A stretch of 64,000 bases of DNA, taken from assembly GCF_055900595.2 (NCBI RefSeq), contig NZ_CM148325.1; one strand, 5' to 3'. Position 1 is the first letter of the stretch. Each line of letters starts with the position of its first letter. Shown here one piece after another: positions 43,693 through 46,600 of the stretch. A program made the position numbers and the translations under genes. The notes below the pieces were generated by a model. That model saw only the letters and a program-made list of their open reading frames with translations. It did no database searches and was not told the DNA's origin.

Positions 43693-46600
43693 TTACGCCT
43701 TCTCGATGTTGACTAAGAACGCTTTATATTCCGGCGTTTGCGAGTTTGCATCACCGACATTCGGCGTCAGAGTGTTAGCGATATAACCTTTACGCGCGAC
43801 ACCCTCAAAGCCCCAGTGGATTGGAATACCCACCGTTTCAACCTGCTGACCGTTTACATTCAGTGGTTTCAGACGGCGCGTTACCACAGCCACCGCGCGG
43901 ATAAAGCCACGCTTGCTGGAGACAGTGACACGATCGCCATTGGCAATGCCTTTCGCCGCCGCCAGCGTTTCGCTGATTTCCACAAACTGTTCCGGCTGAG
44001 CAATTGCGTTGAGCAACGCGTGCTTGGTCCAGGTGTGGAAGTGCTCGGTCAGACGGTAGGTCGTACCCACATACGGGAACTGCTCTTTTTTACCCATCCG
44101 CAGCGCGTCTTGTTCATACAGACGAACCACCGGGTTAGACACCACGTTCGGATGCAGCGGGTTAGTGCCCAGCGGCGTTTCAATTGGCTCGTAGTGTTCC
44201 GGGAACGGACCTTCCGCCATTTTGTTGATGGCAAACAGGCGTCCCATCCCTTCCGGCTGCATGATAAACGGCCCGGTTGGCGTACCCGGTGCGGCATTGC
44301 CGAAGTCCGGAATATCGTTACCCGTCCACTTGCTGCCGTTCCACTGGATCAGCATCCGTTTCGGATCCCACGGTTTACCGTTGATATCCGCCGAAGCACG
44401 GTTGTAGAGTACGCGACGGTTGAGCGGCCACGCCCAGGCCCATCCCAGCGTATTCCCCAGACCGGACGGGTCGGAGTTATCGCGGTTGGCCATCTGGTTG
44501 CCCTGCTCTGTCCAGCTACCGGTGTAGATCCAGCAAGAAGATGCGGTTGTACCGTCATCACGCAGATGCGCAAAGCTACTCAGCAACTGACCTTTTTTCG
44601 CAATCAGCACGCCATTAGCGTCATAGAGATCTTCCAGCGCATAGCCGTTGTTCTCTTTTGCCACTTCGTCTGACTGCGGCTCGTGCGGCTGCTTGTAGTT
44701 CCAGCTCATCTTCATCAGCGGTTCTACACCTTTACCACCTTCGGCTTTGTACAACTCGCGAAGATGATGGTAGATACCCGCCAAAATTTCGCCGTCGTTA
44801 CGTGCTTCGCCTGGCGCGTCCTGACCTTTCCAGTGCCACTGCAACCAGCGACCGGAGTTAGCGATAGAACCATCTTCTTCAGCAAAGCAGGTCGAAGGCA
44901 GACGGAATACCTCTGTCTGAATAGATGCCGGATCGACATCGTTCGACTCGCCGTGGTTCTGCCAGAAAGTTGAGGTTTCAGTCACCAGCGGATCGATAAC
45001 CACCATGTACTTCAGCTTGCTCAGGCAGCTCACCACTTTGTTTTTGTCCGGGAAGGACGCAACCGGGTTAAAGCCCTGGCAGAAATAACCTGTGACTTTG
45101 CCTTCATCCATCATGTTGAAATACTTGATGACGTCGTAGGTCTGGTCCCACTTCGGCAGCCAGTCGTAGCCCCAGTTGTTCTCTTTCTGTGCGGCATCGC
45201 CGTAGAAAGATTTCATCAGGCTGACAAAGAACTTCGGATAGTTGCTCCAGTAGTTCACCTGATCAGCCAGCGTCGCTTTCGGCGTGTTCGCTTCCAGATA
45301 CGACTGCAAATCAACCTGTTTTTCTGACGGCAGCGTCAGATAACCCGGCAGGCTGGTAGAGAGCAGTCCTAAGTCAGTCAGGCCCTGAATGTTGGAGTGA
45401 CCACGCAATGCGTTCACGCCGCCACCGGCCATACCCATGTTACCGAGCAGTAACTGGATCATCGCCATAGTACGGATGTTCTGCGCACCCACGGTGTGCT
45501 GCGTCCAGCCCAGCGCGTACAGGAAGGTGGTGGTGCGATCCGGTGCGCTGGTGGAGGCCAGCACTTCACACACTTTCAGGAAGTCGGCTTTTGGCGTACC
45601 GCAGATGTTTTCTACTACGTCCGGCGTGTAGCGGGAAACGTGCGCTTTCAGCAGGTTCCACACACAGCGCGGATGAGTCAGTGTTTCATCGCGTTTCGCA
45701 TAGCCGTTTTCATCGAACTGATAGTTCCAGGACGACTTATCGTATTGACGTTTTTCAGCGTCATAACCGCTGAACAGGCCGTCTTCGAAAGCAAAATCAT
45801 CACGCACCAGCAGGCTGGCGTTGGTGTAATGCTTAACGTATTCGGCGTTGATTTTGTTGTTTTCGATCAGGTAGCGCAAAACGCCAGACAGGAACGTAAT
45901 GTCCGTACCGGAACGAATAGGTGCGTAGATATCCGCAACAGAAGCGGTACGCGTAAAACGGGGATCGACAACGATCAAGGTTGCATCGTTGTTGTTTTTC
46001 GCTTCCATCGCCCAGCGGAAACCGACGGGATGCGCTTCAGCAGCGTTACCGCCCATCACCATTACGACGTTAGCGTTTTTGATATCCACCCAGTGGTTGG
46101 TCATCGCACCGCGACCAAATGTTGGAGCAAGACTTGCTACCGTTGGTCCGTGTCAGACGCGCGCCTGGTTGTCTACCGCCAGCATCCCGAGGGAGCGGGC
46201 AAATTTTTGAGTCAGCATCCCGGTTTCGTTGCTGGCACCGGAGGCACACAGCATACCGGTAGAAAGCCAACGGTTTACCGTTACGCCCTGCTCATTCTTT
46301 TCAATAAAGTTAGCGTCACGGTCTGCTTTCATCAGCTTCGCAATGCGGGAGAATGCTTCTTCCCAGCTAATGCGCTGCCATTTGTCAGAACCTGGCGCAC
46401 GATATTCCGGATAGCGCAGACGGTTTTCGCTGTTCACGTAATCCAGCAATCCGGCCCCTTTCGGGCACAGCGCACCACGGCTTACCGGATGATCCGGGTC
46501 ACCTTCAATGTGATAAATCGCTTCTCTGGCGTTTTTCGCGCCATCACCCAGGCTATACATCAATAGCCCGCAACCTACGGAACAGTATGTACAAGTGTTA

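Follow-up and report, generated by a model that had tools for sequence, protein, structure and literature searches.

Codon 196 of fdnG, a TGA, very probably (about 97%, by our estimate) encodes selenocysteine, and the approximately 40 coding nucleotides that follow it are predicted from the sequence to fold as a bacterial SECIS hairpin. The gene lies on the minus strand of the Escherichia coli DNA analyzed here, a stretch of 64 kb that is referred to below as the window. Coordinates of the gene, its operon partners, and the parts of the element are collected in Table 1.

A single fdnG reading frame is interrupted by one UGA

Translation of 43693..46740 (-) gave 1016 codons including the terminal stop, with codon 196 as the sole internal stop and AVDNQARV*HGPTVASLAPTFGRGAM as the residues around it. 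Read through the UGA, fdnG comprises 1015 residues followed by a stop, the frame being open for 819 further codons after codon 196. On the plus strand TCA is found at 46153..46155, and the mRNA therefore carries UGA at 46155..46153. The original prediction had located this codon correctly, leaving the minus strand unstated, and had proposed that the gene reads as a single 1015-codon frame only if the TGA is recoded, that its context is ARV-U-HGPT, and that an ORF caller would report two fragments. All three proposals agree with the translation, which has one internal stop and reads NQARV-U-HGPT, and with the mechanical ORF list, in which fdnG is split into 46153..46740 (-), of 195 aa, and 43693..46104 (-), of 803 aa, the latter counted from the first ATG, at 46104.

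That the gene is fdnG, as originally named, was confirmed by a protein family model, a crystallized homolog, RefSeq annotation, and synteny. In a megablast search with 43500..47000 as the query, 5425 of the 5426 complete genomes of E. coli contained the region, labeled fdnG and with fdnH and yddG as neighbors; in most E. coli the identity was 95 to 99%, and 8 records only reached 99% or more. In the window yddG likewise lies on one side of fdnG and fdnH/fdnI on the other. The RefSeq annotation of NZ_CP098223.1, which is 99.9% identical, has a single 3048-nt CDS spanning the UGA. The NCBIfam equivalog TIGR01553 (formate dehydrogenase-N subunit alpha) matched residues 2 to 1014, on both sides of the UGA, with 1622.5 bits against a curated cutoff of 814.2 bits, the U having been entered as C in the query protein. 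Chain A of PDB 1KQF (nitrate-inducible formate dehydrogenase, major subunit) aligned over residues 1 to 1015, with about five amino acid substitutions within the displayed part of the alignment, and its deposited sequence has a nonstandard residue, X, at position 196. We take PDB 1KQF and 1KQG to be the crystal structures of Fdh-N.

The two fragments of the ORF list are exactly those expected if the TGA were a true stop, in which case fdnG would be a nonsense pseudogene or would yield two polypeptides, one of 195 aa and one of 803 aa restarting at ATG 46104. Against this stand the 819 codons that remain open and the homology to a single crystallized chain, which runs unbroken across the UGA and thereby excludes both a true stop and two separate genes. 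Of the 71-nt stretch bearing the TGA, copies with 99% identity or more were found in 5369 E. coli records, and the stretch is present in 5425 of 5426 genomes; thus, the TGA is not strain specific, and the refuting case originally named, a true stop in this strain, was not borne out. In addition, fdoG, fdhF, and 69 distinct cross-species sequences among the matches listed have this UGA as well, and a specific SECIS model matches right after it, as described below. The probability left to a true stop is vanishingly small, and this explanation, including its two-gene form, can be regarded as already refuted in practice.

Table 1. Location of fdnG, its operon partners, and the parts of the SECIS element in the window
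Feature	Coordinates	Strand	Basis
fdnG, formate dehydrogenase-N alpha subunit	43693..46740	-	Translation, RefSeq, TIGR01553, 1KQF_A
fdnH, beta subunit, next operon gene	42796..43680	-	RefSeq annotation carried over from collinear genome
fdnI, gamma subunit, final operon gene	42150..42803	-	RefSeq annotation carried over from collinear genome
UGA codon 196, very probably decoded as Sec196; next base C (UGA-C)	46153..46155	-	Translation; fdoG UGA at same codon; 1KQF X196
Full SECIS, Rfam SECIS_3 (RF01989) model positions 1-59	46100..46158	-	Covariance model
11-nt spacer CACGGACCAAC, UGA to apical mini-helix; doubles as 5' arm of basal stem	46142..46152	-	fdhF comparison, PMC8659212 rule
Apical mini-helix GGUAGCAAGUCUUGCUCC, putative SelB-binding part	46124..46141	-	Fold, covariation, fdhF layout
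Bulged U17	46139	-	Same position as in fdhF
Loop GUC (G23 = 46133, U24 = 46132)	46133..46131	-	Positions as in fdhF
Basal stem 3' arm UUGGUCGCG, pairs with 46143..46150	46110..46118	-	MFE structure

The sequence following the UGA matches a SECIS model

A search with Rfam SECIS_3 matched 46158..46100 (-) with 84.3 bits (E = 1.1e-20 locally, or 1.4e-18 when the search space is the entire 64-kb window), the gathering score of the family being 63 bits. The original prediction had placed a SECIS hairpin directly after the codon and had proposed, among other checks, that the 45 nt downstream of the UGA be folded and that the element be compared with those of fdhF and fdoG. Folding of the 45 nt produced the hairpin, with the minimum free energy (MFE) structure ..((((((((.((.(((((...))))))).....)))))).)).. 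at -13.8 kcal/mol. Its apical helix bulges out one U and ends in a GUC loop; beneath this helix come an internal loop and then a basal stem. The upper stem is formed by 5 + 2 pairs (7 bp) about the one bulged U, and the 18-nt apex folded separately as ((.(((((...))))))) at -4.5 kcal/mol. The position given for the hairpin was right, as the first pair lies 0 to 2 nt 3' of the UGA depending on the model; the apex given for it, GCAAG-UC-UUGC, was not, because a 2-nt loop cannot form. The apex is instead GCAA-GUC-UUGC, with 4 pairs and a 3-nt loop, which may also be parsed as GCA-AGUCU-UGC. The register of the basal stem in E. coli differs from the Rfam consensus by a shift of one; the consensus register places two nonstandard pairs in the basal stem of the window sequence, and an alternative register obtained with ViennaRNA fits E. 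coli better.

The element was compared with published descriptions of bacterial SECIS elements. The rules set out in the legend to Fig. 2 of PMC13188914 call for an apical loop of 3 to 9 nt on an upper stem of 4 to 16 bp, and here a 3-nt GUC loop sits on a 7-bp stem. They also place a G within the first two loop positions, commonly followed by G or U, which is the arrangement of G23 and U24 in the G-U-C loop; the spacing, at 19 nt, falls within the constraint given in the same legend. Finally, that legend sets an MFE of -7.5 kcal/mol or lower, and the 45 nt after the UGA reach -13.8 kcal/mol, although their z score against shuffled sequences is only -1.70. For SelB-type elements, the upper stem-loop is described as lying 11 nt from the UGA, with U17 and G23/U24 as the conserved bases contacted by SelB (PMC8659212). 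The fdhF prototype layout is present in full: an 11-nt spacer, a bulged U17, and G23/U24 in the loop.

Other models and signals were also considered. With Rfam SECIS_2 (RF01988), the fdhF type, whose gathering score is 70, the element reached only 28.8 bits, placing it outside that family. A CRISPR-DR57 match at 45994..46022 had an E value of 6.6 and was dismissed as noise. A scan of 41300..47100 for sigma-70 promoters and terminators yielded no more sites than shuffled sequences and nothing informative for fdnG.

The SECIS element is shared with fdoG and resembles that of fdhF

E. coli K-12 has this very gene at the corresponding place (yddG / fdnGHI), with its UGA also at codon 196. The stretch comprising the UGA and SECIS recurs without a single difference (100% identity) in K-12-derived records and in thousands of others from E. 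coli, and the differences between the window and K-12 fdnG all lie outside it. That selenocysteine is encoded by the opal codon of fdnG was shown by Berg et al. in 1991, as referenced in PMC13188914 (its reference 73).

The paralog fdoG (formate dehydrogenase-O) of K-12 is found at a separate locus under separate regulation and shares 77% amino acid and 74.4% nucleotide identity with fdnG of the window. Its UGA likewise occupies codon 196, the next 60 nt match the window at every base, and its SECIS matches SECIS_3 with an equal score of 84.3 bits. One synonymous difference is located 4 nt upstream of the UGA. The longest perfect run between the two genes extends over 71 nt (codons 195 to 218), the second longest being 35 nt. 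Within the 71-nt run all 21 codons capable of synonymous change are identical, compared with 57% elsewhere in the genes (P about 8e-6).

The fdhF gene of K-12 encodes formate dehydrogenase-H, a 715-aa cytoplasmic enzyme with Sec140, and has its UGA at codon 140 followed by a SECIS_2 (RF01988) element scoring 87.1 bits. The fdhF and window elements have in common UGA-C, the 11-nt spacer, bulged U17, and the positions of loop bases G23, U24, and C25, and the genes share the peptide context ARV-U-HGP. They differ in the apical loop, which is GGUC (4 nt) in fdhF and GUC closed by an A-U pair in the window, in the length of the mini-helix (17 nt in fdhF and 18 nt in the window), and in the sequences of the stems, which are unlike. 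The comparison thus found the fdoG sequence identical over 60 nt and the functional positions of fdhF kept; together with the SECIS_3 score, these likenesses uphold the identification of the hairpin as a SECIS. In all three genes, fdnG, fdoG, and fdhF, the base directly after the UGA is C. UGA-C is a weak context for release factor 2 (RF2).

Folding energy is a poor criterion for SECIS elements

Against dinucleotide-preserving shuffles, the hairpin gave z scores of -0.76 (51 nt), -1.70 (45 nt), -1.11 (43 nt), and -2.06 (18-nt apex). By thermodynamics alone, the hairpin therefore goes only marginally beyond chance. MFE relative to shuffled sequences was set aside as a measure of significance for SECIS elements, as the known positive fails it too: in the same test the experimentally proven SECIS of fdhF gave z scores of -0.85 and -0.67. 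Since fdhF does no better, free energy is a poor criterion and provides no argument against the element. By the SECIS_3 covariance model the hairpin is clearly beyond chance, and covariation supports this as well.

Covariation at synonymous sites indicates selection on the RNA

The modest folding energy leaves room for another explanation, in which the hairpin is a by-product of the conserved peptide HGPTVASLAPTFGRG and has no function as RNA, with the UGA being passed by near-cognate read-through (Trp/Cys). The peptide is indeed strongly conserved, and the free energy of the hairpin is not significantly better than that of shuffles. Variation among species at sites that leave the peptide unchanged bears directly on this explanation. 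GTDB species genomes were searched in one pattern scan in which only the nonwobble bases of the V-U-H-G-P-x-V-A codons were fixed. At least 120 loci were obtained, resolving, among the matches listed, into 69 distinct FdnG-type sequences, 12 FdhF-type sequences, and one chance match; the last, from Streptomyces (L056), had no formate dehydrogenase context downstream and was left out of the alignment. Among the matches listed, the UGA recurs across Proteobacteria.

Covariation was computed on a gap-free alignment of the 69 distinct sequences among the matches listed, to which all of the following frequencies refer. In the apical helix, 99.8% of cells were paired. Two of its seven pairs were fully compensatory, both linking synonymous wobble positions. 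The pair between the wobble bases of Val GUN and Ala GCN was GC in 52 sequences, AU in 10, GU in 4, and CG in 3, and that between Ala GCN and Leu CUN was AU in 48, CG in 18, and GC in 3; neither was unpaired in any sequence. None of 500 shuffles attained a covariation score as high as that observed, and in a control, displacement of the 3' partners by 1 to 3 columns reduced pairing to 27 to 49%.

Compensatory change at synonymous wobble sites, with no broken pairs (G-C/A-U/C-G at one and A-U/C-G/G-C at the other), cannot be produced by selection on the protein, and the apical helix of the SECIS is thus shown to be under selection at the RNA level. The by-product explanation is excluded by this covariation. 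It is further opposed by the synonymous sites of the element, which are frozen between paralogs and genera, whereas 36 to 49% vary elsewhere, and by the placement of U17, G23, and U24 exactly at the SelB contacts of the fdhF element. We consider it to have hardly any probability left.

The basal stem behaved differently. In either register, 84 to 86% of cells were paired among the same 69 listed sequences, essentially without compensatory change. As neither register shows convincing covariation, the basal stem is weakly supported, in agreement with the view that the lower part of the SECIS contributes little (PMC8659212).

Conservation extends past the apical mini-helix

Across genera, the UGA and the 54 nt following it were base identical in at least 21 loci among the matches listed. 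The 18 identical loci that carried titles span at least eight Enterobacterales genera and come from Yersinia, Photorhabdus, Providencia, Citrobacter, Enterobacter, Klebsiella, Superficieibacter, and Escherichia albertii. Outside this core, over the 350 flanking codons, the same species agreed in only 51 to 64% of synonymous codons (82% in E. albertii); P values of this flank comparison are conditional, as the loci were picked for an identical core. Within E. coli, the lowest match listed for the 71-mer was that of H32, at 97.2%, within a 3051-nt gene. This copy had been considered as a case in which the UGA might be lost, but its gene length, as in fdoG, suggests that the H32 copy is that of the paralog.

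A recent gene conversion between fdnG and fdoG, rather than selection on the RNA, could account for a 71-nt perfect run within genes that are otherwise 74% identical. The same 57 nt, however, recur unchanged in Yersinia, Photorhabdus, Providencia, Klebsiella, Enterobacter, Citrobacter, Superficieibacter, and E. albertii, and the element has thus been constant over long divergence and not merely homogenized within one genome. We therefore regard gene conversion as an improbable sole cause of the identity of the two elements, to which it may nonetheless contribute. This explanation addresses only the cause of the conservation, the identity of the element as a SECIS being undisputed.

According to the published minimal requirement, a SECIS needs the apical mini-helix, which has 17 nt in fdhF, at the right spacing. 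Conservation of the fdnG element goes far past this minimum, as identity takes in the 3' flank and also the basal stem, whose pairing is weak. It is conceivable, though unlikely, that the lower part of the SECIS and the 3' flank carry an additional, undescribed sequence-specific role, which could be tuning of the competition between SelB and RF2, ribosome pausing, or service as the target of a regulatory RNA. Alternatively, recurrent gene conversion between fdnG and fdoG may maintain the 57-nt identity.

An insertion sequence lies downstream of fdnI

The window is collinear with NZ_CP098223.1, at 99.9% identity, save for approximately 704 extra bases at 41394..42097. These correspond to an element of the IS200/IS605 family with tnpA on the minus strand, inserted approximately 52 bp downstream of the fdnI stop codon. 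Identical copies were identified elsewhere in E. coli. The sole Rfam match in the window other than SECIS_3, to STnc490 at 41964..42087 (-), falls inside this element.

Decoding machinery and proposed mechanism

Among complete E. coli genomes, selC, the gene for tRNA-Sec, was found in 5424 of 5426, and selA-selB and selD were each found in 5425 of 5426. A tRNA search and the gene map revealed no tRNA gene and no sel gene within the 64-kb window; that this genome itself carries the sel genes is inferred from their frequency in the species.

The mechanism proposed for fdnG is drawn from the established E. coli system, as outlined in the reviews PMC13188914 and PMC8659212. SelB, a specialized elongation factor loaded with GTP and with the selC product, Sec-tRNA(Sec), whose anticodon is UCA, would bind the apical mini-helix through U17 and G23/U24. 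The 11-nt spacer would position this complex such that the tRNA enters the A site as the UGA arrives, and Sec-tRNA(Sec) would outcompete RF2 there. The expected product is a full-length alpha subunit of 1015 residues, probably exported by the Tat pathway; its N terminus carries a putative twin-arginine motif, SRRQFFK, read from the sequence. In the mature enzyme, Sec196 would ligate the molybdenum of the bis-MGD cofactor at the formate-oxidizing active site. Jormakka et al. reportedly described Sec196 as the molybdenum ligand of Fdh-N in 2002. The presence of selenium at residue 196 in this strain receives indirect support from the near-identical K-12 protein, which was crystallized with a nonstandard residue at that position.

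Both Sec196 and the SECIS of fdnG are already known, being represented by an Rfam family, RefSeq annotation, and a PDB entry, and as they have been known since 1991 their recovery here adds little to science. What fdnG does provide is a correct positive control, in which a reading of the raw sequence recovers a recoding event that naive ORF callers break in two. It also indicates how SECIS elements are best tested: the free energy of the hairpin is a poor guide, and covariance models together with covariation at wobble sites are decisive.

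An IS200/IS605-family insertion beyond fdnI

Comparison of the window with Escherichia coli genome NZ_CP098223.1, which is collinear and otherwise 99.9% identical, revealed an IS200/IS605-family insertion of approximately 704 bp that is lacking from the corresponding site in that genome. The element lies between yddM (higA) on one side and the 3' end of fdnI on the other, approximately 52 bp downstream of the fdnI stop codon. Copies sharing 100% identity with it were identified at other places in other E. coli, and related copies were found in 2,641 of the 5,426 complete E. coli genomes.

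A match to the Rfam family STnc490, described as an Hfq binding RNA, scored 146 bits against a gathering score of 56. As this match falls inside the IS200 copy and covers the 5' end of tnpA, it was assigned to the small-RNA region of IS200 itself rather than to a chromosomal small-RNA gene, and presumably corresponds to the antisense/5' untranslated region RNA of IS200. The extreme left edge of the insertion carries a GC-rich hairpin with a perfect stem of 8 bp; T-runs flank it on each strand, and it resembles a bidirectional terminator.

Features of the window and of strain 97.3
Feature	Coordinates	Strand	Details
RelE/ParE-family toxin gene and yddM	40825..41387	+	Annotation transferred from the collinear genome
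yddM (higA)	41103..41387	+	HigA-family antitoxin
IS200/IS605-family insertion	41394..42097
Hairpin	41396..41414
tnpA ORF	within 41496..42005	-	Part of the insertion
STnc490 match	41964..42087	-
fdnI, 3' end	42150
SECIS basal stem	46110..46152	-
Three intact ORFs between yddG and narU	48113..51948	+	ORF list and annotation of the collinear genome
L126, sole gene with the 71-mer in strain 97.3	NZ_CP061758.1, 4634135..4637185		3,051 nt, the length of fdoG; annotated "fdnG"

Genes neighboring the fdn operon

The RelE/ParE-family toxin gene is located directly upstream of yddM, with a one-base overlap between them, and together they look like a higBA-type toxin-antitoxin pair adjoining the fdn operon. 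The three intact ORFs in the yddG-narU interval encode a porin annotated as "OmpC" (366 amino acids), a hypothetical protein (419 amino acids), and a leucine-rich-repeat protein (416 amino acids); we take K-12 to carry the degenerate genes yddL, yddK, and yddJ at this position.

Lineage and conservation of the fdnG region

The region surrounding fdnG (43500..47000) was found at an identity of at least 99% in only 8 E. coli records, compared with 5,401 at 95 to 99%, which places the window in a minority lineage. The closest matches are to strains of human origin and from a South Korean dog.

Across the 5,426 genomes, fdnG/fdoG, selAB, and selD were each absent from exactly one, and selC was absent from two. 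The 71-nt stretch spanning the UGA codon and SECIS is present twice in most genomes and once in E. coli O68:H12 strain 97.3. Either the true fdnG may be absent from this strain, or PGAP may simply have given the name "fdnG" to the one gene that carries the stretch.

In the SECIS of enterobacterial fdnG/fdoG, pairing of the basal stem is offset by one position from the Rfam SECIS_3 consensus register. When placed in the consensus register, the stem contains the nonstandard pairs A8-C48 and A12-G44; despite these, its bases are frozen across genera.
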